Position numbers and translations under genes: made by a program
The notes under the pieces: model-generated
What the model saw: only the letters and a program-made list of their open reading frames with translations
Told to the model about the DNA's origin: nothing
Database searches by the model: none
From: Calothrix sp. NIES-2098
Lineage (GTDB): Bacteria; Cyanobacteriota; Cyanobacteriia; Cyanobacteriales; Nostocaceae
Direction of reading: 5' to 3'
Length of the DNA: 32,000 nucleotides
NCBI GenBank assembly: GCA_002368175.1
Contig: AP018172.1
Location: 8,574,327-8,606,326 of the forward strand
Shown here: in pieces, positions 2,815-18,191 of the stretch
Layout of the letters: each line of letters starts with the position of its first letter
Position numbering within the stretch: the first letter of the stretch is position 1

Positions 2815-4047
2815 TTAACTGCTAGTTGATGTAACTGCATAATTTCGCATCTCCCAGCGATTTAGCATTTCACTGTAAACATCTTTCACCACAGTCCGCG
2901 CTGCATAAGGCTGTGCTGCACGCACGCATGAAGTACTTGGGTAATTTTCGGAATGTAGAATTACTTGCTGTAAAGCAGCTGCTAACCTCTCTGGCGATCG
3001 CTGTTCGCAGACAACCCCATTGTCAGCAGTTAGTAATTTTGGCGTTTCACCACATCTAGTCGTAACTACTGGTGTTCCACTGGCAAGGGCTTCCAGAACT
3101 ACTAAAGGTAAACCTTCATAGGCACTGCTCAGGACAAACACGTTAGCGATCCGATGCAATCTCGCTAGTTCCTCTATGGGAATTGCTCCTAGCATCGTGA
3201 CCTGAGTAGACAATCCTAATTGAGCGATTTCTGTACGTACTGCTGTTGCTAACTCGCCATCACCCGCGATCAGGAGGTGAGTGTCTGGTTGATTTAAAGC
3301 TGCGATCGCACGTACTAACAAAATTGGATCTTTTTGCGGATGTAGCCGCCCTGCAAACAAGATAAACTTTGTTTCTTCGCTCAAACCCAATTTGTTTGCT
3401 AGTTCTCGTTTCTGCGCTTTCCGTTGTTCCTGACTTAAGGGATAGAAAATTTCGTTATCAAAGGAATTCTTGATATATGCGACTCGATCTTGGAGGTGAG
3501 GATACTGCTGTCTATACAATTGGGCTGAATCAGTATTACAAGAAAAAATCTGGCTAAACTGATTAACTAGCAAGCTTTCTAAAGCAAAATATGCTGTGGG
3601 AAACCTCCGCCACAAAATCGCATTTTTATCGCCTGCTGCTTGAGTTTGCGTGTGAATATCGTTATGAATAAATAAGGTTTTGTCGGCCTGCCAATTTAAA
3701 GCTGCTAAACTTGGTTCTAGACGATGAAAGTGCATAAAGTCTGAGGTAAAACTCCGTCCCAGCAGTGCTGCCGTATACTTAACTGTAGTTGGTATCAGAG
3801 TTCTGAAGTTATCATTTTCTAAGGTAAATAGCGGGAAAAAACTGATTTCTCTACCAGCTAATTCTGCTGCTTGCCACTTGCCAACTCTTTGAGTGCGATC
3901 GCATCCTGTCCCTACTAATCGCACCTCAAACTCACTAGGAGCGTATTTAATCAATGTATTTATAAGTGTTTGTATGCCACCAATAGTAGAGTGCCAAGGA
4001 TTAAATTGGTAGAAAATAGTTAGAACTGGTTTACGCATTACTTTCAA
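2815..4047 (-). CDS. GT4-family glycosyltransferase
   Basis: 410-aa ORF with the nucleotide-sugar binding region FAGRLHPQKDPILL and the E-x7-E motif EGLPLVVLEALASGTPVVTT. An alternative start is Met4 (nt 4038). Confidence 0.9.
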   Translation of the reverse strand: MKVMRKPVLTIFYQFNPWHSTIGGIQTLINTLIKYAPSEFEVRLVGTGCDRTQRVGKWQAAELAGREISFFPLFTLENDNFRTLIPTTVKYTAALLGRSFTSDFMHFHRLEPSLAALNWQADKTLFIHNDIHTQTQAAGDKNAILWRRFPTAYFALESLLVNQFSQIFSCNTDSAQLYRQQYPHLQDRVAYIKNSFDNEIFYPLSQEQRKAQKRELANKLGLSEETKFILFAGRLHPQKDPILLVRAIAALNQPDTHLLIAGDGELATAVRTEIAQLGLSTQVTMLGAIPIEELARLHRIANVFVLSSAYEGLPLVVLEALASGTPVVTTRCGETPKLLTADNGVVCEQRSPERLAAALQQVILHSENYPSTSCVRAAQPYAARTVVKDVYSEMLNRWEMRNYAVTSTSS

Positions 4048-8746: not shown

Positions 8747-10291
8747 TTACTTGCGGGTATAACGATGCTTCACCCCAATAGGGAAATATTCTGCGTCACC
8801 AGTGGGAGCTAATGCAACTTGTGGCATTTGATATTCTTTTGGAACGTAGTTAGCAAATTCGCTATTAAGACGTAAAAGTTGCGAGAGAATGGAAGATGCG
8901 ATCGCAACTCTTTTGTCTTCGCTAGCTTCTACTCCTGGTGCTAACTCTACGACTATAGATAAAAATCGGTTTTTGTCTGCGTCTTCTTTAACTTGCAAGA
9001 CAAATTTACCTGTTACCCAGTCGGGAATTGGCGATCGCTCTAAACCTACTGTGACATTTTCTGGATAGATATTTGCACCAAAGTAAGAAACTGTAAAATT
9101 AGAACGTCCGAAGACATATACAAAAGGTAGGGCGCGAATACCTCTAGTGGCTTGATTGTCAACGCAGAGATGTTCATCTTGAAGCGGATCGAATCCCCAT
9201 TGTGCCAAAAATTTCAGCATGGCATCGTAATTAATTACCCCACCTGTATCTAAGATGTTATAACGCACCAGAGGAATACCATTGTTTCCCGAAAACAGCA
9301 ATGTGCCATCCTGCACTTCAAAAAAGCGACTGATAGGGTCGTATTGTACTAATGTTGGCAGTCGAGATTCGCCAAATAAAGCTTTCGCTGCATCGGGATG
9401 TTGTGCCAAAAAACGACGAATGCAGATACTCAAAGGTGTTTCATTACCTAACACACCTGCATCAGCAGTTCCATAAAGTGATGCAAAGTCATAGCAGGGA
9501 TTTTGCGAACCGATTCTTTCACCTACCAAACTCCGCCATTCTTCACTAAAGACTTCTCCTGCCATCACCAACTTAATATGATATTGCTGCCACTGCACGT
9601 TTCGAGCAATTCCGGTATCAATTACATCTTTCAGGAATGGGGGATAACCCAACAAAACAACTTGGTCAAATCCTAAAGCAAGTTCCTGAACGGCACGCAA
9701 GATTTCTTCTTTATTATTCCCTGGTGTAATTACAGTTACAGGATAACCTTTGCTGGCAAGATAGCGACAGCAATTAGTGGTAAACATTCCACCTACCCAT
9801 GTACCCAAAGTGAAGCAAATCACCGCTAAGGTGCGTCTGGTATCTGCATAGAAACTATCGTGAAAAATTTGCTCAAAGCGGGTGGCGATTTGCAGTTCAT
9901 CTGCGAAGAAACGCGGCCAGAATGTGGGTTTACCTGTGGAACCGGAGGAAGCCGCTATCATGTCGCATTCTGATAACTTCCCATTGCGGCACAAGTCAGC
10001 TAGAGGATAACGCGAGATATAATTTTCTTTGGCGATCGCGGGTAAGTTTTGAAAATCTTCTAAACTTTGGATAGTCGCTGGATCGATTCCCCGTTCTGCC
10101 AGAAAAGCTTTGTAAGCTGGAACATGAGCAGCCACATCACGAAATAAAGCCAAAATCGCTGATTCCTTTGGTGTTTCTAGATGCTGTTGTAGTAGGGTAT
10201 CTAGGGGTGTAGATAAAAAATCACCAAACGCTGTAATTGCTCTTTGCTGTTGTGATGTGCTGTTCATGATGCTTTTTCTAGAGTGCGACAA
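8747..10291 (-). CDS. CapK/PaaK-like adenylate-forming enzyme (phenylacetate-CoA ligase family)
   Basis: 514 aa. The AMP-binding P-loop-like motif is AASSGSTGKPTFWPR. The overall layout fits the COG1541 family, which is frequent in capsule and EPS loci. It converges on the sugar transferase gene. Confidence 0.8.
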   Translation of the reverse strand: MSHSRKSIMNSTSQQQRAITAFGDFLSTPLDTLLQQHLETPKESAILALFRDVAAHVPAYKAFLAERGIDPATIQSLEDFQNLPAIAKENYISRYPLADLCRNGKLSECDMIAASSGSTGKPTFWPRFFADELQIATRFEQIFHDSFYADTRRTLAVICFTLGTWVGGMFTTNCCRYLASKGYPVTVITPGNNKEEILRAVQELALGFDQVVLLGYPPFLKDVIDTGIARNVQWQQYHIKLVMAGEVFSEEWRSLVGERIGSQNPCYDFASLYGTADAGVLGNETPLSICIRRFLAQHPDAAKALFGESRLPTLVQYDPISRFFEVQDGTLLFSGNNGIPLVRYNILDTGGVINYDAMLKFLAQWGFDPLQDEHLCVDNQATRGIRALPFVYVFGRSNFTVSYFGANIYPENVTVGLERSPIPDWVTGKFVLQVKEDADKNRFLSIVVELAPGVEASEDKRVAIASSILSQLLRLNSEFANYVPKEYQMPQVALAPTGDAEYFPIGVKHRYTRK

Positions 10292-10379
10292 AATGCGATC
10301 GCGTAGTCACTATAGCGAAAAATTATCCTCCCTACTCAAATTGTTAAAAGTATTTAGGATGATAAGGATAAATGGAAAA

Positions 10380-10778
10380 ATGACCCGTACTTTTAATCCT
10401 GAATCTTACGGTAAATTGCTAGCTGAGTATCAACCAAAAACGATTATCACAGAAGAAGAAAACGAAGCAGCAATCAGACTGGCTTTAACCTTAGAACATC
10501 GTCCCAATCGGACACCAGAAGAAGATATGTTGTTGGAACTGCTACTAACGCTAATCGAAAAGTTTGAAGAAACCCATTACCCAATTCCTCAAGGTGCGCC
10601 AAATTCGATGTTAATTCATCTGATGGACGCAAAAGATGTGACGACAGAAGCATTAGCTAATGTAATTGGATCGTTGGAAGTTGTGCGGGAAATTATTAAT
10701 GGCGATCGCACTATTAGTAAGACTCAAGCAGAAGCGCTTGCAAACCATTTTAATGTAGATGCTAGTTTATTTATCTAG
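10380..10778 (+). CDS. HigA-like antitoxin / XRE-type HTH protein (solo)
   Basis: The track ORF starts at 10257, which would overlap the divergent CapK-like gene. The internal ATG at 10380 (MTRTFNPESYGKLLAEYQPKTIITEEENEAAI) gives a 132-aa protein. It has the layout of COG5499-type antitoxins, with the C-terminal HTH LMDAKDVTTEALANVIGSLEVVREIINGDRTISKTQAEALANHFNV. No toxin ORF is adjacent. Confidence 0.7.
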   Translation: MTRTFNPESYGKLLAEYQPKTIITEEENEAAIRLALTLEHRPNRTPEEDMLLELLLTLIEKFEETHYPIPQGAPNSMLIHLMDAKDVTTEALANVIGSLEVVREIINGDRTISKTQAEALANHFNVDASLFI

Positions 10779-10933
10779 CTGATTTAAAAAATGACAAAAA
10801 AATCCAATTAAATAATAGGCGATCGCACCCGCCTTACAAGTTAAATCTTAATAAATTTGGATTATTTCTTTCCAAATGAGTTGAGCTAAATTACAATTGC
10901 TACCAGTATAATCTCGGATTTCGTGCTGAAAAT

Positions 10934-11308
10934 ATGGAGCCTGTAACACTGACAGCAGCTGCTATTGCTACTTTAGTCATTACAAAAGCTTTTGAAAAGA
11001 CTGGTGAAATCCTGGGCGAGAAGGCTTTAGAGGAAGGTGGTAAGTTATTCTCTTTGCTCAAGGATAAAGCACCCAATACGGCGGCCGCTATTGAACTGGC
11101 TCAAACACAACCTTTAGATTACGGTCAAGCTTACCTGATTGGGCAGCAAGTAGAGGAAGCAGCAAAGAAAGATGATGAAATAGCTGAAGCTGTCGCAGCA
11201 TTAGCCAAGGAAGCACAACCGCAATTAACCCAAACTATTGAAAATTATCAAGGGATAAATATTAAAGGCGGAACTAATACTATTTCTGGCAATACCTTTA
11301 ACTTTTGA
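10934..11308 (+). CDS. Small helical protein with hydrophobic N-terminal helix and G/N-rich C-terminal motif; candidate N-terminal effector module of the downstream NB-ARC protein
   Basis: 124-aa ORF: MEPVTLTAAAIATLVITKAFEKTGE, then Ala/Glu-rich helices, ending GINIKGGTNTISGNTFNF. Its TGA stop (11306-11308) is in the same reading frame as the following NB-ARC ORF, and there are no other stops between them. Confidence 0.6.
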   Translation: MEPVTLTAAAIATLVITKAFEKTGEILGEKALEEGGKLFSLLKDKAPNTAAAIELAQTQPLDYGQAYLIGQQVEEAAKKDDEIAEAVAALAKEAQPQLTQTIENYQGINIKGGTNTISGNTFNF

Positions 11309-11368
11309 CTACCGTCGCCTGAACGGGAACAGGTAAAGTCTCATCCCCAGAGTGAAATACCGCAAAAT

Positions 11369-13690
11369 TTGCCCCTGAGTGGGGTAGTGGAATTTGTGGG
11401 ACGTGGGGAAGAATTGCAGAACCTCCACAAACTTTTGCAGCAAAATCAACAAGTAGCCATTGCAGCTATTGCAGGGATGGGTGGTGTTGGGAAAACAGAA
11501 CTGGCGTTGCAATATGCCATTAAGTACCGCGACAATTATCAAGGTGGAATTTGCTGGTTGTTGCCCAAATCTGGGGATATTGGCGTGCAAATTGTCCAGT
11601 TTGCGAGGACGCAGCTTGATTTAAACCCGCCAACAGATGTAGATTTACCCGCGCAAGTGCAATTTTGCTGGTGGCGTTGGCGTGAGGGTGAAGTGCTGCT
11701 GGTGTTGGATGATGTTGCTGATTACCAGGAAGTTAAACCTTACTTTGTGTCGCTATCTTCTCGGTTCAAAATCCTGATTACCACCCGCCAGCACTGGGGA
11801 AGGATAGCAGAATTATCCTTAGATGTTCTGCAACCAGAGGCGGCGCTGGAATTATTAAAGTCAATTATTGGGGTAGACAGGTTTGAAAGGGAAAATCAAC
11901 GCAACCCCCAGGTAGCATTACAGTTATGTGAGTGGCTGGGATATTTGCCTTTGGGTTTGGAGTTGGTGGGGCGGTATTTAGAGCAAGACCCAGATTTAAC
12001 ATTAGAGAGAATGCTATCTCGATTACAGCATGATGGCTTGCGAGATAAATCCATATATGCTGCTGAAGCAACAATGACAGCAAAGCTTGGTGTTGAAGCT
12101 GCTTTTAATTTAAGTTGGCAACAATTAGATGCAGCAACTCAAGAATTAGGTTGTTTGCTGAGTTTATTTGCTACAGCACCTATCACTTGGGAACTGGTGG
12201 GAAAGGTTCTGGAAGCATATCGCGCTTTAACTCGCAACTCTAATAGTGTTTTTAAAGGGTTCCAAAAACTTTTTACTTTCTTTAGCAAACAAAATCATCA
12301 GCAGTCTGACAAATCATTTCACCTCAATACAGATATTTCCCTTGAGGAAGCCAAAATTAATTTGCTGCGTTGGCATTTACTCCAGCGCCAAGGTGAAGGA
12401 ATTTACCAACTACATCCCTTGCTGCGGGAGTTTTTCCAAAGTCAGCTTAAAAGCTTAGAACCAGCAGAGGAATTTAAGCGTTCTTTCTGCAAGGTAATGA
12501 TAGCAGTTGCCAAAACAATTCCTCAAACCCCTACCCTTGAACAAATTAACTATGTTACCCCCGCCATACCTCATATAACTGAAGTAGCAGACAATCTTAT
12601 CAAAGATGTTAACGATGATGATTTAATTTGGCCTTTCATCGGCAATGCCCGATTTTATAATGGTCAAGGATTATATGATAAAGCAGCACCTTGGTATCAG
12701 CAAAGTCTAGAAGTTACCAAAAACCGCTTAGGGGAATCACATCCACTTGTTGCTACTAGCCTCAACAATCTGGCGGAACTCTACCGTTCCCAAGGTAGAT
12801 ACAGCGAAGCCGAACCTTTGTATGTGCAAGCTTTAGAATTATGGCGACGAAGCTTGGGGGAATCACATCCACTTGTTGCTACTAGCTTGAACAATCTGGC
12901 AATACTCTACCTTTCCCAAGGTAGATACAGCGAAGCTGAACCTTTGTATGTGCAAGCTTTAGAACTCAGGCGACGAAGCTTGGGGGAATCACATCCACTT
13001 GTTGCTACTAGCCTGAACAATCTGGCGGAACTCTACCGTTCCCAAGGTAGATACAGCGAAGCCGAATCTTTGTATGTGCAAGCTTTAGAACTCAGGCAAC
13101 GAAGCTTGGGAAAATCACATCCACTTGTTGCTACTAGCCTGAACAATCTCGCGGAACTCCACCATTCCCAAGGTAGATACAGCGAAGCCGAACTTTTGTC
13201 TGTGCAAGCTTTAGAGCTATTGCAACGAAGCTTGGGGGAATCACATCCACTTGTTGCTACTAGCCTGAACAATCTGGCGGCACTCTACCGTTCCCAAGGT
13301 AGATACAGCGAAGCCGAACCTTTGTATGTGCAAGCTTTAGAACTCAGGCGACGCATACTGGGGGAATCACATCCAGATTTTGCTACTAGCCTGAACAATC
13401 TCGCCGGACTCTACAAATCCCAAGGCAGATACAGCGAAGCTGAACCTTTGTATGTGCAAGCTTTAGAACTCAGGCGACGCATACTGGGGGAATCACATCC
13501 AGATTTTGCTACTAGCCTGAACAATCTCGCCGGACTCTACGATTCCCAAGGCAGATACAGCGAAGCTGAACCTTTGTATGTGCAAGCTTTGAATATTTTT
13601 GAGCGACAATTAGGGGTGAATCATCGCCATAGTGTTACTGTACGTGGAAATTTAGCATATTTTCGCGCTCAGTTCTCTTCAGAACAGTAA
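11369..13690 (+). CDS. STAND NTPase: NB-ARC domain + winged-helix/helical region + about 9 TPR (kinesin-light-chain type) repeats; NLR-like
   Basis: P-loop: IAGMGGVGKTELA. Walker B: VLLVLDDVADY. RNBS-B-like: FKILITTRQ. GLPL: GYLPLGLELVG. MHD-like: YQLHPLLREFF. After these come repeated 42-aa TPR units (GESHPLVATSLNNLAELYRSQGRYSEAEPLYVQALELRRRSL). The track start is a TTG. The frame is open upstream to the TGA at 11306, and there is no ATG before the P-loop. Confidence 0.88.
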   Translation: MPLSGVVEFVGRGEELQNLHKLLQQNQQVAIAAIAGMGGVGKTELALQYAIKYRDNYQGGICWLLPKSGDIGVQIVQFARTQLDLNPPTDVDLPAQVQFCWWRWREGEVLLVLDDVADYQEVKPYFVSLSSRFKILITTRQHWGRIAELSLDVLQPEAALELLKSIIGVDRFERENQRNPQVALQLCEWLGYLPLGLELVGRYLEQDPDLTLERMLSRLQHDGLRDKSIYAAEATMTAKLGVEAAFNLSWQQLDAATQELGCLLSLFATAPITWELVGKVLEAYRALTRNSNSVFKGFQKLFTFFSKQNHQQSDKSFHLNTDISLEEAKINLLRWHLLQRQGEGIYQLHPLLREFFQSQLKSLEPAEEFKRSFCKVMIAVAKTIPQTPTLEQINYVTPAIPHITEVADNLIKDVNDDDLIWPFIGNARFYNGQGLYDKAAPWYQQSLEVTKNRLGESHPLVATSLNNLAELYRSQGRYSEAEPLYVQALELWRRSLGESHPLVATSLNNLAILYLSQGRYSEAEPLYVQALELRRRSLGESHPLVATSLNNLAELYRSQGRYSEAESLYVQALELRQRSLGKSHPLVATSLNNLAELHHSQGRYSEAELLSVQALELLQRSLGESHPLVATSLNNLAALYRSQGRYSEAEPLYVQALELRRRILGESHPDFATSLNNLAGLYKSQGRYSEAEPLYVQALELRRRILGESHPDFATSLNNLAGLYDSQGRYSEAEPLYVQALNIFERQLGVNHRHSVTVRGNLAYFRAQFSSEQ
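12731..13612 (+). repeat. Seven tandem near-identical 126-bp coding repeats (TPR units)
   Basis: GGGGAATCACATCC recurs at 12731, 12857, 12983 (the 13109 unit reads GGGAAAATCACATCC), 13235, 13361 and 13487. A degenerate unit starts at 13613. The last two units share an identical stretch of roughly 90 nt (about 13321-13414 versus 13447-13540). Confidence 0.95.
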
Positions 13691-14225: not shown

Positions 14226-15905
14226 ATGCAAGTCTATTGCACAAAACAACACGTAAATAATGGCAGTAACCGTTTTTGTACGCACTGCGGTGAACCCTTG
14301 CCTCTTCCTGTAGGGCAGCTGGTGGATAAACGCTACAAAATTATACGTCAATTAGGTGAAGGTGGTTTTGGGCGTACTTATTTGGCTGAGGATCGAAATC
14401 AATCTAACCAACAATGCGTACTTAAAGAATTTGCACCGCAAGTACAAGAACAGCAAGATTTACAAAAAGCTAAAGAGTTATTTGAGCGTGAAGCAAATGT
14501 CCTCAAAAAACTCCAGCATCCGCAAATCCCTAAGTTTCACGCCTCGCTACAAGAGAAGTTAGGGGGTAGAGATTTTTTCTTTTTAGTACAAGATTATATA
14601 GATGGTGATAATTATCGCCAGTTGTTAGAACAGCGTCAAAGTCAAGGACAGACTTTTAGTGAAGAAGAAGTACTGACATTATTAGAAAAAATCTTACCTG
14701 TGCTGTCCTATTTGCATTCCAAAGATGTAGTTCATCGCGATATTTCACCAGAGAATTTAATCTGGCGGCGTTCTGATAATTTACCAATATTAATTGACTT
14801 TGGTGGAGTGAAACAATTACCAGCTTCTCAAGGTTTTTGGTTTACCCAGTTGGCGGTAAATCATACTTTATTAGGGAAAAAAGGCTATGCTCCAGAAGAA
14901 CAACTAAGACAAGGCAAAGTTTTTTTTAGTAGCGATTTATATTCTTTAGCAGTGACAGCTTTGGTGCTGCTGACTGGAAAGGAACCACAAATGCTTTATG
15001 ACAGCTACCAAGGAATTTGGCTTTGGGGAAAAGAAATCAAAGTCAGTCCCAAGCTAGAAGCAGTGTTAAAAAAGATGTTGGCGTATCAACCTAACGCTCG
15101 CTATCAAAATGCTAGTCAAGTATTGAAAGATTTACCTTCAAAAGTTGCTACTAAACAACCAAATCCTTACATTACCAAAATTAAGACGATGGTGGTTGCT
15201 CCAGGGCGCAAACAGACTAATCAAATTATTAGTAAAATCCATAGCAAAACGCAACTAATAGCTAATAAAATGCCTCTTCCTGCTTGGCTGCGTCCTTTTG
15301 CTGTGAGTCTGGGAGGAACGGCTGTAGTAGTTTTAGTTGGTGTAGGCAGCTTTGCGGTAGTAAATGGCATTATTCGCAGTATATCGTCAATTTCTCTCCC
15401 AAAAATCCCATCAATATCGCTTCCTGCAAGTAAACCAGTTAGCGATAAAGGAACGAGTCGCATTAGTCAAATTTTAAGCCGCCGCCAACAACTGGAAATT
15501 CCCGAAGGATTTTTCATCCGCATGGTAGATAATTTGTTCTATTCACAAAAGCCAGAATTACAAGGACGCAGCCTGACCTCTAAACCAGAAGATGCCGCAT
15601 TACGAGATGAATGGTATGGTATTGCCGAAAACTTGTTGCAAAAACTGGAACAAGCTAATCTCAGTTCAGCGGCTCGTCGTAAACTAGGAAGCTACAGTCA
15701 GAGAGATTACGATACTTGGAGGCAACAAGCACGCAATGGACAGTTTGGTAACTATACAATAAATCAATTAACAAAAGATACATACGAACAATTCGATCGC
15801 TTGTTTCCCGGTCAGCCGCGTGGGAAACTGAATCAACAAACTTACGGTCAGATTTGGTATGCGATCGCAGCCGATCGAGTAAGTAAGGTACAATCTGGCA
15901 ACTAA
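14226..15905 (+). CDS. Membrane Ser/Thr protein kinase with N-terminal CHCC zinc ribbon and extracytoplasmic C-terminal domain
   Basis: Zinc ribbon: YCTKQHVNNGSNRFCTHCGEPL. Gly loop: LGEGGFGRTY. VAIK-type Lys: CVLKEF. Catalytic loop: HRDISPENL. DFG: LIDFGGV. APE-like: GYAPEEQ. TM helix: FAVSLGGTAVVVLVGVGSFAVV. The roughly 150-aa C-terminal domain is shared with the next gene. Confidence 0.9.
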   Translation: MQVYCTKQHVNNGSNRFCTHCGEPLPLPVGQLVDKRYKIIRQLGEGGFGRTYLAEDRNQSNQQCVLKEFAPQVQEQQDLQKAKELFEREANVLKKLQHPQIPKFHASLQEKLGGRDFFFLVQDYIDGDNYRQLLEQRQSQGQTFSEEEVLTLLEKILPVLSYLHSKDVVHRDISPENLIWRRSDNLPILIDFGGVKQLPASQGFWFTQLAVNHTLLGKKGYAPEEQLRQGKVFFSSDLYSLAVTALVLLTGKEPQMLYDSYQGIWLWGKEIKVSPKLEAVLKKMLAYQPNARYQNASQVLKDLPSKVATKQPNPYITKIKTMVVAPGRKQTNQIISKIHSKTQLIANKMPLPAWLRPFAVSLGGTAVVVLVGVGSFAVVNGIIRSISSISLPKIPSISLPASKPVSDKGTSRISQILSRRQQLEIPEGFFIRMVDNLFYSQKPELQGRSLTSKPEDAALRDEWYGIAENLLQKLEQANLSSAARRKLGSYSQRDYDTWRQQARNGQFGNYTINQLTKDTYEQFDRLFPGQPRGKLNQQTYGQIWYAIAADRVSKVQSGN

Positions 15906-16037: not shown

Positions 16038-18191
16038 ATGCATCCTGTCTATTGCTCCAAAGGACACGAAAATCCCGCAGGGAGCCGCTTTTGCCTGAAT
16101 TGCGGTGAGAAGTTATTAGATACGCCTGTAAATTACAGTATCCAACCGGGACAAGTTTTAGGCGATCGCTATTTAATTGTGCGTCAAATTGGGCAAGGTG
16201 GTTTTGGACGTACTTATTTAGCTGAAGATGTTAACCGTTTTCGCGAACTTTGTGTTTTAAAAGAATTTTCTCCTCAAGTTCAAACGGCTTACGTTTTACA
16301 AAAAGCGGAAGAACTGTTTCAGCGAGAAGCCAGCGTTCTCTACAAGCTGCAACATCCCCAAATTCCGCGCTTTCGGGAAAATTTCCGCATCAATTTGGAT
16401 GGTAAAGAATACCTGTTTTTGGTGCAAGATTATGTAGAAGGGCAAACTTACAACTCTTTACTAAATACTCGCCGATCGCAAGGTTTGCGGTTTACAGAGG
16501 CGGAAATTAGACAGTTGTTGCAGCAAATCCTCCCAGTTTTGGAATACATACACTCTCTAGGCGTAATTCACCGCGATATTTCTCCCGATAATTTGATTCT
16601 GCGTAAGCTCGATCAATTACCAGTATTAATTGATTTTGGCGGCGTGAAACAAGTAGTAGCAACGGTCGCCTCTGAATATTACCAGCCTGGTGTTGTTGGA
16701 TCTCCCGCAGGAGCAACTTTACTGGGTAAGGTGGGATTTGCACCCCCAGAACAAATGCAAACTGGTTTGGTGTCTCCCCACAGCGATTTATATGCTTTGG
16801 CAGCTACTATGTTGGTTTTACTGACAGGAAAGCAACCACAAGAATTAATTGATACTTATACCCTAAATTGGCAATGGGACAGAGAAGTTAGCCTGAGTCC
16901 AGCTTTGGGGCAAATTTTAAATAAAATGCTATCTCCTAGACCAGGCGATCGCTATCAATCGGCTCGTCAAGTCTTAGAAGCACTCAACCCCCAGCAGGCG
17001 ATAAGCTATGTACCCACACAACCGCCTACCCAAGCACCTACACCTCCCACCACATCTGAGACTGTTGCGATCGCTTCTCCGCGTTACCCATCTCCCCCAG
17101 TTCCGATCTCGTCACCTCCACCTCAACCGACAAATTCTTGGACACCAACCAAAACCTTTCTCATTGTATTAGTAACAGCTGGGATTGCGGGAGTGGGTTT
17201 GTGGGGAGTAAATAATTTGCTGCGATCGGATTTGAATGGAGGCGATCCTACAATTTCACCTACACCCACACCTACAGCCACTACTACTCCGCCGCAGTAT
17301 TCCCCAGCAGAACAGCAACGCAAAGATAAATTGCGCGATCGCCGTCAACAGTTGGGTATAGACAATAATTTCTACGTTAACTTGGTAAATCAACTGTTTT
17401 GGGAACAAAATCCCAGTTTAAAAGGACGAACTCTGAGCGATCGCCCTGAAGATGAAAATTTGCGGGCACAATGGGATCGACTAGCAGGCGAAGTATTAGA
17501 CAAACTTGCACAACTGAGTACCAAAGCACGCCAGCAACTCGGAACTTACACATCAGCAGAACGCGATCGCTGGAAAGTGGAAGTTAACCAAGTCAACGTT
17601 GGTAGTCGTTCGTTATACGATTTAGGAGATGCTGCTTTCTTTGCTGCTTTCCCCACCCAGCGCAACAAAGATTTTGTCAATCAACCCATTGGACAAGTTT
17701 GGTATGGCTTTGTCAGTGACAAGCTGAGTGCGATTTTAGCTGGTAGCGCTTTTCAAAAAATTGTCTTTGATCAAGGTGCTACCAGTAAAACAGTTAGTGG
17801 TAATCTTAGCCCCAGTAATGGCAAAGTTTTTATTGCTGGACTTGCCAAAGAGCAATCTTTAGAAGTGAATCTCAAAGCCAATTCTAAAGTTTTGCTATCA
17901 ATATATTCACCCTCTGGCAAAATCAAATTTTTAGAAGATTCTACCCAGCGCAGTTTGTCAATCAAGCTACCTGAAGATGGATTTTATGAATTTGTGGTTG
18001 TAAATACAGGATCGCAAGCAACAGATTATCAACTAACCATCACAGCCCAAACTCCCACCCCACCAACACCGACACCAACTGTTACCGACACTCCTACACC
18101 CACACCCACCGTCACAACAACACCAACACCGACACCAACTGTCACCGACACTCCTACACCTACACCCACCCCAACATCTAATAGTCAATGA
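16038..18191 (+). CDS. Membrane Ser/Thr protein kinase paralog with CHCC zinc ribbon, Pro/Thr-rich linkers, shared extracytoplasmic domain, extra beta-rich domain and TP-repeat tail
   Basis: Zinc ribbon: YCSKGHENPAGSRFCLNCGEKL. Gly loop: IGQGGFGRTY. Lys: CVLKEF. Catalytic loop: HRDISPDNL. DFG: LIDFGGV. TM helix: FLIVLVTAGIAGVGLWGV. The domain RQQLGIDNNFYVNLVNQLFWEQNPSLKGRTLSDRPEDENLRAQW is homologous to the first kinase. The C-terminal TPTPTPTVTDTPTPTPT tail is encoded by two 60-bp direct repeats (18061-18110 and 18121-18170). Confidence 0.9.
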   Translation: MHPVYCSKGHENPAGSRFCLNCGEKLLDTPVNYSIQPGQVLGDRYLIVRQIGQGGFGRTYLAEDVNRFRELCVLKEFSPQVQTAYVLQKAEELFQREASVLYKLQHPQIPRFRENFRINLDGKEYLFLVQDYVEGQTYNSLLNTRRSQGLRFTEAEIRQLLQQILPVLEYIHSLGVIHRDISPDNLILRKLDQLPVLIDFGGVKQVVATVASEYYQPGVVGSPAGATLLGKVGFAPPEQMQTGLVSPHSDLYALAATMLVLLTGKQPQELIDTYTLNWQWDREVSLSPALGQILNKMLSPRPGDRYQSARQVLEALNPQQAISYVPTQPPTQAPTPPTTSETVAIASPRYPSPPVPISSPPPQPTNSWTPTKTFLIVLVTAGIAGVGLWGVNNLLRSDLNGGDPTISPTPTPTATTTPPQYSPAEQQRKDKLRDRRQQLGIDNNFYVNLVNQLFWEQNPSLKGRTLSDRPEDENLRAQWDRLAGEVLDKLAQLSTKARQQLGTYTSAERDRWKVEVNQVNVGSRSLYDLGDAAFFAAFPTQRNKDFVNQPIGQVWYGFVSDKLSAILAGSAFQKIVFDQGATSKTVSGNLSPSNGKVFIAGLAKEQSLEVNLKANSKVLLSIYSPSGKIKFLEDSTQRSLSIKLPEDGFYEFVVVNTGSQATDYQLTITAQTPTPPTPTPTVTDTPTPTPTVTTTPTPTPTVTDTPTPTPTPTSNSQ

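Follow-up and report, generated by a model that had tools for sequence, protein, structure and literature searches.

The stretch analysed here (the window) comprises 32,000 nucleotides of the Calothrix sp. NIES-2098 genome (contig AP018172.1, positions 8,574,327 to 8,606,326), and the subject is a pair of adjoining coding regions at 10934-13690 on its plus strand: a small open reading frame (ORF), here called ORF1, and a gene for an NLR-like STAND NTPase that follows it in the same reading frame. An earlier note, made from the letters of this DNA, had placed the two in one frame with a single TGA between them, and the sequence agrees exactly: one frame of 2757 nt spans both, its sole break being the TGA at 11306-11308. 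Past this codon the frame continues for 793 codons without a stop, through LPSPEREQVKSHPQSEIPQNLPLSGVVEFVGRGEEL and the P-loop GMGGVGKT (11474-11497), and ends at 13690. The features of the locus, with the evidence for each, are these:

10869-10897, plus strand: promoter-like -35/-10 pair TTTCCA-17-TACAAT, 5' of ORF1 (weak; a consensus match alone).
10934-11308, plus strand: ORF1, opened by the ATG at 10934 and encoding an effector of 124 residues that consists of a Bell domain and, at its C-terminus, a bacterial amyloid signalling sequence (BASS) of type BASS7, ending in UGA (BAY13964.1 / WP_096595029.1, Calothrix sp. NIES-2098).
10934-11236, plus strand: Bell helical domain, residues 1-101 (homologue alignment and predicted model).
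11237-11305, plus strand: BASS7-type amyloid signalling motif IENYQGINIKGGTNTISGNTFNF (match to BASS7 pairs).
11306-11308, plus strand: in-frame UGA followed by C (UGA-CUA), the proposed read-through site (conservation across loci).
11309-11316, plus strand: 8-nt spacer CUACCGUC between stop codon and pseudoknot (three alignments).
11309-11392, plus strand: linker of 28 codons, LPSPEREQVKSHPQSEIPQNLPLSGVVE, from the UGA to the FVGR that starts NB-ARC, open and in frame (indels in multiples of three, stop avoidance).
11317-11347, plus strand: proposed H-type pseudoknot (pairing and covariation across 79 junctions).
11369-11387, plus strand: predicted hairpin H2, UUGCCCC-UGAGU-GGGGUAG (folding prediction).
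11393-13690, plus strand: NB-ARC/TPR STAND sensor, NLR-like (Pfam).
12726-13590, plus strand: TPR array, a 126-nt unit repeated 6.9 times with 91% nucleotide identity (repeat analysis).

In the downstream part Pfam detects NB-ARC (4e-13, above the gathering score) and TPR_12 (1e-107), so that the protein has the NB-ARC domain with its Walker A P-loop, followed by C-terminal repeats, that characterizes NLR-like STAND NTPases. The TPR units are so alike that recent recombination and diversification of the sensor are suggested. No site comparable to the promoter-like pair 5' of ORF1 was found between ORF1 and the NLR, which suggests a single transcript. PADLOC gave only a generic TPR match for the NLR and none for ORF1, and no curated defence-system model (Avs or bNACHT) matched; a defence role for the locus is suggested by its family.

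Since Pfam (nothing significant), PADLOC, a sequence-profile search of the PDB (nothing below E=0.1) and a Foldseek comparison of the ORF1 model with the PDB (nothing better than E=0.46) were all uninformative, the family of ORF1 was established by way of a published exemplar and its accession. Along its whole length ORF1 shares 80% identity with RCJ33357.1, the Bell exemplar "Nosto" in Figure 1C of Dyrka et al., 2020 (bioRxiv 10.1101/2020.01.06.895854), which itself belongs to a locus of the present type (L025). A homologue search over 5.8 billion proteins gave 212 matches; all 120 of the 120 listed are short, at 68-185 residues, and come from Nostocales and other filamentous cyanobacteria. 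Their alignment displays an N-terminal hydrophobic helix (MEPVTLTAAAIATLVI in ORF1), Glu at position 2, a helical body and interchangeable C-terminal motifs rich in G, N and Q, the same anatomy as the Bell domain with its BASS (Dyrka et al., 2020). Bell proteins have about 120-140 residues, a hydrophobic helix at the N-terminus and an acidic residue at position 2 or 3; with its 124 residues, its start MEPVTLTAAAIATLVITKAF and its Glu2, conserved across the alignment, ORF1 is by these relationships a Bell-domain protein ending in a BASS7-type motif. The AlphaFold model, of low confidence (predicted local distance difference test score 64), is all-helical, with helices at residues 6-16, 19-23, 29-45, 47-58, 63-79 and 81-102, and the motif segment is disordered in it; a five-helix bundle related to HeLo, MLKL or Bab, as expected of Bell proteins, is on this model and the structure searches no more than a possible fold of ORF1. 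The earlier note had said that this N-terminal module does not look like a nuclease, a protease or a TIR domain, and had left it unrecognised; its identification as Bell with BASS7 changes the mechanistic picture.

Rich in G, N and Q, as expected of a BASS7 motif of about 25 residues, the C-terminal motif compares directly with the BASS7 entries NENWQGINFKNANPTISGNTFNF and NENWQGISIKGGINTIQYNNFNF of Table S2 in Dyrka et al., 2020; the motif string is absent from the paper texts, the BASS family number coming from the supplement. The same motif at the N-terminus of the adjacent NLR, by which such pairs are defined, is not seen here: the NLR frame opens with the linker, and a six-frame search of the window turned up no second copy of the BASS7 motif. 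If read-through takes place, one copy would serve both proteins. One homologue, P0192 (Nostoc sp., 221 residues), starts MEPVSLTAAAIA and runs straight into GMGGVGKT; it looks like a deletion derivative in which a Bell N-terminus was joined to the NB-ARC P-loop, perhaps by recombination between two AAIA-coding stretches.

Eighty genome loci encoding ORF1 relatives were compared. An NB-ARC NLR lies in frame behind the Bell gene in 54 of them, and the stop between the two is TGA in all 54, followed by the codon CTA in 51 and by C at position +4 in 53. As background, TGA ends 19% of 350 long ORFs in the same loci, and 8 of the 66 TGA stops (12%) are TGA-C; the TGA-linked arrangement is far from chance. 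The earlier note had proposed an alignment of orthologous loci as a check, and in none of the 54 in-frame loci is the TGA replaced by a sense codon. Nor did a junction-spanning query of the 5.8 billion proteins return a sense-codon fusion, the best matches covering the NB-ARC part alone, about 56% of the query. The UGA and a product length of 124-130 residues are conserved across many cyanobacterial genera, the same TGA stands in about 90 independent assemblies, and the pairwise ratio of nonsynonymous to synonymous substitution rates (dN/dS) is 0.20 for Bell, 0.39 for the motif and 0.23 for NB-ARC. Two of the explanations that the earlier note had offered, namely that an all-in-one gene recently acquired a nonsense mutation and that the TGA is a sequencing error, are excluded because the UGA and the frame are conserved, the first by the spread of the UGA and the product length over genera and the dN/dS of the downstream ORF, the second by the recurrence of the TGA in assembly after assembly. 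That the locus is a pseudogene, or its TGA an assembly error, can be given practically no credence: some related copies are clearly decayed (L024, L035, L106 and L083b), but both coding parts are under purifying selection and no sense-codon ancestor was found. The decayed copies show that mutation does reach such loci, which makes the intact junctions the more meaningful.

The distance from the UGA to FVGR is 24, 25, 26 or 28 codons in genomes, with 30 and 31 added in metagenomes, every indel being a multiple of three. Over linker codons 1-20, stop-creating single substitutions were seen in 0 of 9 possible cases as against 59 of 171 for other substitutions (p=0.025), while in the other two plus-strand frames stop-creating changes are as common as any (3/7 and 4/7 seen). 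Those two frames were ruled out as coding alternatives through the linker, with stops in 49 of 50 and 46 of 50 loci. An antisense ORF at 11309-11590, which takes its TAG from the strand opposite the conserved CTA, was likewise ruled out, being interrupted in most loci because TCA or TTA at linker codon 11 are stops on the opposite strand. One locus in which the NLR is shifted by one base (P0210/L121) was not counted as an exception: the shift comes from one A too many in the homopolymer GGGAAACGG of a 2.38x long-read contig and is probably a sequencing error.

Canonical pairs with the same Bell family (L041, L046, L051, L052, L055, L060, L064, L068, L072 and L082) are built differently: the Bell gene ends in TAA or TAG, and the NLR, which has an ATG and occupies a different frame, repeats the Bell motif at its N-terminus. 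In L064 the Bell protein ends ENWKGINIKGGNSTINNPNFNF and the NLR begins MTTENWNGINIKGGNPVINISQSERAKLNPP; in L082 the corresponding segments are NENWQGINIKGGSPTINNPSFNFGK and MMSDPIEENWEGINIKGGSPTINNPTF; and L055, L068, L060 and the group of L041, L046, L051, L052 and L072 carry other motifs. The BASS7-type motif of the window is also found on the NLR side, in L064, L082 and P0207, and in L064 it is followed by SQSERAKLNPP, of which SERAKLNPP is homologous to the post-UGA linker of the window. NLRs of the TGA type, by contrast, lack such a motif, and in many of them a usable start codon is missing as well; read-through would yield for them the canonical order of motif, linker and NB-ARC, with Bell in front. 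Orthologues with two frames and a proper ATG, which the earlier note had named as evidence that would count against its reading, thus occur only as this separate class, whose NLR carries its own motif.

Between the UGA and the P-loop of the window the only canonical candidate starts are TTG at 11369, 11414 and 11435 and GTG at 11387 and 11396; no ATG precedes the P-loop, again as the earlier note had it, and the first one lies inside it. Its statement that there is no clear Shine-Dalgarno sequence is roughly right, with the qualification that the purine-rich GAGUGGGG stands before GTG 11387, in a predicted hairpin. This hairpin, H2, contains the TTG 11369 candidate and abuts GTG 11387, and the third positions of its Pro (CCC) and Gly (GGG) codons are unusually conserved across loci. 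No start position is conserved: many loci have TTA, CTC or CTT in place of the TTG at linker codon 21, and there is variation too at the GTG codons 26 and 27. There is no ATG, GTG or TTG before FVGR in 5 of the 54 genome loci and in 18 of 27 intact metagenome loci, two of the latter having none before the P-loop either. The starts chosen by gene callers are inconsistent (MEFVGR, MVEFVGR, MPLSGVV, or a CTG directly after the TGA, among homologues P0121-P0200), and many NLR homologues are labelled "partial" by NCBI though they lie inside large contigs; these entries look like a systematic mis-annotation of the gene class.

One possibility is that these are two ordinary genes, with the NLR starting at TTG 11369, GTG 11387 or a non-canonical codon, the RNA element described below regulating NLR translation or mRNA processing, and the shared frame inherited and functionless. 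Start candidates do exist in 49 of the 54 genome loci, purifying selection is seen from codon +21 on and not on codons +1 to +20, and Bell and NLR are normally separate, tightly spaced genes (Dyrka et al., 2020). We nevertheless regard this as unlikely, in that it leaves unexplained the presence of TGA in 100% of the in-frame loci, the in-frame link across orders, the restriction of indels to multiples of three and the avoidance of stops in the linker. The 18 metagenome loci without a canonical start before FVGR also speak against it, as does the position of the candidate starts in or beside H2, and a motif-less NLR would have no evident route to the BASS7 effector, its canonical counterparts carrying the motif.

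Over linker codons 1-20 the dN/dS is 1.5, because dS collapses to 0.14 as against 0.55-0.77 in the flanks; third positions are nearly invariant while first positions vary, a pattern suggesting that the nucleic acid, and not the peptide, is what is constrained. A 5-bp hairpin beginning 8 nt past the UGA was proposed by RNAalifold, the loop of which can pair with a downstream UCCC to form an H-type pseudoknot. The consensus has 9 base pairs, in stem 1 (S1, GCCYG/CRGGU) and stem 2 (S2, GGGA/UCCC), with loops L1 of 3 nt, L2 of 1 nt and L3 of 9 A-rich nt (AAAGUYAAA). In the window, S1 is formed by 11317-11321 (GCCUG) and 11330-11334 (CAGGU), and S2 by 11325-11328 (GGGA) and 11344-11347 (UCCC), leaving L1 at 11322-11324, L2 at 11329 and L3 at 11335-11343 (AAAGUCUCA). 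Scored over 79 distinct junctions, the model has 98.5% of its cells paired (S1 99.7%, S2 96.8%), while slid controls, with the partners moved by 1-3 nt, pair in at most 53%. Cells with compensatory double changes number 41 as against 11.2 +/- 2.5 in shuffles, and 0 of 500 shuffles reach the observed number. Compensatory changes are seen at four pairs: 19/34 (C-G to U-A), 21/32 (C-G to U-A to G-C), 26/48 (G-C to A-U to C-G) and 27/47 (G-C to A-U); the high dN of the linker arises because several of these compensating substitutions alter the amino acid. Single-sequence folding of the window junction is not significant (z = -1.0), the support for the structure coming from the comparative analysis alone.

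The canonical NLR of L064 has a shortened version of the junction sequence, without the 5' strand of S1, which indicates that the full structure goes with the UGA. At 3040-3090 of that locus the sequence reads CAG TCT GAA CGG GCA AAG TTA AAT CCT, with one GAACGG unit, where the read-through junctions have CCC GAA CGG GAA CGG; a small duplication may thus be the origin of the pseudoknot's stem 1.

A UGA with an RNA structure nearby is also the layout of bacterial selenocysteine genes, and the UGA could in principle be fully recoded, by selenocysteine or by a dedicated suppressor tRNA, the true gene being an all-in-one Bell-NLR. This we consider very improbable. No Rfam family, including the selenocysteine insertion sequence (SECIS), matches the junction at E up to 10, and instead of a SECIS hairpin the structure found is a short pseudoknot; the UGA falls in a tolerant linker without catalytic logic; TGA is a normal stop in these genomes; and no tRNA gene was found in the window, to which that search was limited.

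A metagenome scan with a degenerate junction pattern added 38 further loci. Upstream of the UGA, and in frame with it, these junctions follow Bell proteins with many different C-terminal motifs; in three cases (L098/L101, L105 and L109) the upstream ORF is instead an alpha/beta-hydrolase (DUF676/PGAP1-like) that leads in frame into NACHT-type NTPases, and the L109 hydrolase ends in NFQTQIEGGTAYIAE, which resembles BASS9. The in-frame partners downstream are NB-ARC/TPR, NB-ARC/DUF7779, NACHT and nSTAND1/WD40 proteins. In a Symploca locus the junction persists, its S1 showing the U-A and G-C variants, although the Bell protein is only 38% identical to ORF1. Locus L073, from 6415, has only TGA CTA CAG TCG in common with the other junctions, followed by LQSIAQVLGGIVVYVSGGQAIFG and then an nSTAND1-WD40 NTPase; its stretch rich in G, V, I and Q might be an amyloid-like segment.

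Such variety on both sides of one junction of about 45 nt, which joins many Bell C-terminal motifs to several NTPase classes, might also be expected of a recombination or gene-conversion joint for the shuffling of effector and sensor modules, its identity between loci then reflecting homogenisation and not RNA function. There are several paralogous copies per genome, and the junction is near-identical between Nostoc and Aerosakkonema loci, the latter's Bell being only 54% identical to that of the window. Shuffling at the junction could coexist with read-through; as a replacement for it we think it improbable, homogenisation predicting neither the compensatory pairs, the 98.5% pairing and the strict UGA-C nor the downstream indels in multiples of three. 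It seems fairly probable that a dedicated cyanobacterial recoding cassette, in which UGA-C is followed by a spacer of 8 nt, then an H-type pseudoknot and a linker that is in frame and tolerant, splits NLR-like immune or cell-death genes into a major free effector and a minor fusion, and that in Bell/BASS loci the sensor-side template would thereby come from the effector motif's own DNA copy.

What sequence and comparison show is the identity of the domains, a UGA conserved together with its frame and context, an NLR side that lacks the motif, starts that are inconsistent or absent, and covariation in the RNA. Our reading of them, to which we assign a probability of roughly 70%, is that this is a Bell/BASS-NLR amyloid-signalling locus in which one reading frame is split by a programmed leaky stop, and that one message probably gives the cell both a free effector and, rarely, a fusion of effector and sensor. 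Read-through is favoured because the UGA-C is invariant, the zero-frame link admits only indels in multiples of three, no consistent start is present and the pseudoknot is supported by covariation; of the two routes to a second product that the earlier note had named together, the comparative data thus point to read-through and do not favour re-initiation. In bacteria, a UGA with C behind it is known to terminate translation inefficiently (PMC5289835).

The mechanism we propose is as follows. A single mRNA would begin upstream of 10934, and most ribosomes would stop at the UGA, releasing the 124-residue Bell effector, with its putative membrane-targeting helical domain and C-terminal BASS7. 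A minority would decode the UGA as sense, the likely decoder being near-cognate tRNA-Trp, favoured by the weak UGA-C context and by the H-type pseudoknot that starts 8 nt downstream. With the stop codon in the A site, a spacer of 8 nt places the structure at the mRNA entry of the ribosome. Ribosomes reading through would cross the tolerant 28-codon linker and produce a Bell-BASS7-linker-NB-ARC-TPR protein of 918 residues, with the junction peptide GGTNTISGNTFNF[W/C/R/G]LPSPER, which would equip the sensor with an amyloid motif; in canonical pairs the NLR has a separately encoded one at its N-terminus. Ligand-driven oligomerisation would then cluster the BASS7 segments into an amyloid nucleus, templating the abundant free Bell-BASS7 and so activating its cell-death domain. 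We infer in this way the occurrence of read-through, its efficiency, the amino acid inserted, the amyloid templating by the fusion and a biological trigger.

Several points weigh against this reading. The fusion protein is a prediction from sequence comparison. Linker codons 1-20 are without purifying selection on the peptide (dN/dS 1.5), so their translation is deduced only from the frame, the indels in multiples of three and the avoidance of stops, and the last of these tests is modest (p=0.025). In the window and in most Nostocales loci, a TTG or GTG 21-27 codons past the UGA could start a motif-less NLR. The pseudoknot model was derived from the same sequences on which it was later tested, the metagenome pattern fixed part of the structure, and the junction sequences are related to one another. 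In 13 "type B" loci (L003, L012, L013, L015, L016, L018, L019, L021, L025, L030, L031, L032 and L034) a 9-nt deletion removes the 3' strand of S2 while the UGA-CUA and the frame are retained; the alternative predicted there is a 7-bp bulged hairpin 5 nt past the stop, which is without covariation support. The Bell-BASS junctions of L033, L036 and L067 lead into non-NTPases (a transmembrane segment with a PsbP-like or a Pro/Ser-rich part), and some of the upstream hydrolases have no obvious amyloid motif, so the amyloid rationale is not the whole story. Finally, we know of no description of pseudoknot-stimulated read-through for bacterial ribosomes.

The locus may be compared with several known systems. 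It resembles the Bell/BASS-NLR pairs of Dyrka et al., 2020 in having a Bell protein of about 125 residues with a C-terminal BASS7 that, in a multicellular cyanobacterium, lies directly 5' of an NB-ARC/TPR NLR and is collinear with it; unlike them it lacks the defining motif at the NLR N-terminus and has instead one frame across a conserved UGA and a pseudoknot. Neither "stop codon" nor "readthrough" nor "in-frame" is used in the text of that preprint, and RCJ33357 was not found in those of its supplementary tables that were searched. With the all-in-one Bell-NLR proteins that the same authors mention, the locus would share the product order Bell, NB-ARC, TPR; here, however, the frame is broken by a stop, Bell and NB-ARC have an amyloid motif between them, and free Bell-BASS would predominate. 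The proposed logic is analogous to that of HET-S/NWD2 in Podospora and Bab/Agp (BASS11) in E. coli (bioRxiv 10.1101/2024.11.07.622273), where a motif-bearing sensor templates the identical motif on a pore-forming or membrane-targeting effector, leading to regulated cell death or abortive infection. Those, however, are two separately translated proteins with two co-evolving motif copies; in the present system, known from its sequence, one DNA copy would serve both.

The likeness to gag-pol of murine leukaemia virus (MuLV) is one of mechanism and not of homology. The MuLV signal consists of a stop codon, an 8-nt spacer and a compact H-type pseudoknot, with a zero-frame ORF beyond (PMC4178896), and the present one would similarly give a fixed ratio of short to extended product. 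Three elements of such a signal are found here beside a predicted extended protein, namely a conserved stop in a weak context, an open zero-frame ORF under selection, and a structure about 8 nt past the stop that shows covariation. MuLV differs in its UAG, its eukaryotic ribosomes and its larger pseudoknot (L3 of 18 nt), as against UGA-C, stems of 5 and 4 bp and bacterial chromosomal genes here. In the coat/A1 gene of phage Qbeta, bacterial ribosomes read a leaky UGA to make a minor, C-terminally extended protein with the N-terminal domain of the major product (reference 20 of PMC7026636); to our knowledge it has no downstream pseudoknot stimulator, and it is a phage gene with a structural extension, not a STAND sensor. 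The literature searched for read-through in Bell, BASS or NLR systems, and for pseudoknot-stimulated read-through in bacteria, held nothing relevant; Bell/BASS-NLR pairs are already known, while the in-frame UGA architecture and the RNA element were not found there.

As for the neighbourhood, two tandem Ser/Thr protein kinase genes lie just 3' of the NLR (14226-15905 and 16038-18191) and match the PADLOC PD-T4-6 kinase models (E 1e-82 and 3e-79); their surroundings may be a defence island. Immediately 5' of ORF1, an HTH_3 protein (10257-10778) matches PADLOC PD-Lambda-2_B (4e-12); its open frame overlaps the end of a 514-residue minus-strand ORF at 8747-10291.

If the recoding is confirmed, it would be new for bacterial cellular genes and would provide the first conserved pseudoknot-associated signal for programmed stop-codon read-through among them, extending to bacterial chromosomal genes, and with a short RNA signal, a mechanism so far mainly viral and eukaryotic. 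The arrangement would stand as a third NLR signalling architecture beside the two-gene amyloid pairs and the all-in-one proteins. In public cyanobacterial genomes, the annotation of many NLR genes gives an arbitrary start or calls them "partial", and read-through would explain what couples to their effectors the many cyanobacterial NLRs that have no motif or no start codon and lie behind "orphan" Bell-BASS genes. Anabaena is known to regulate its translational fidelity (PMC10272220), and one speculative possibility is that read-through could in this way tie the dosage of the sensor to translational stress. The ratio of effector to sensor would be set by design, and the templating and templated motifs would be guaranteed identical.

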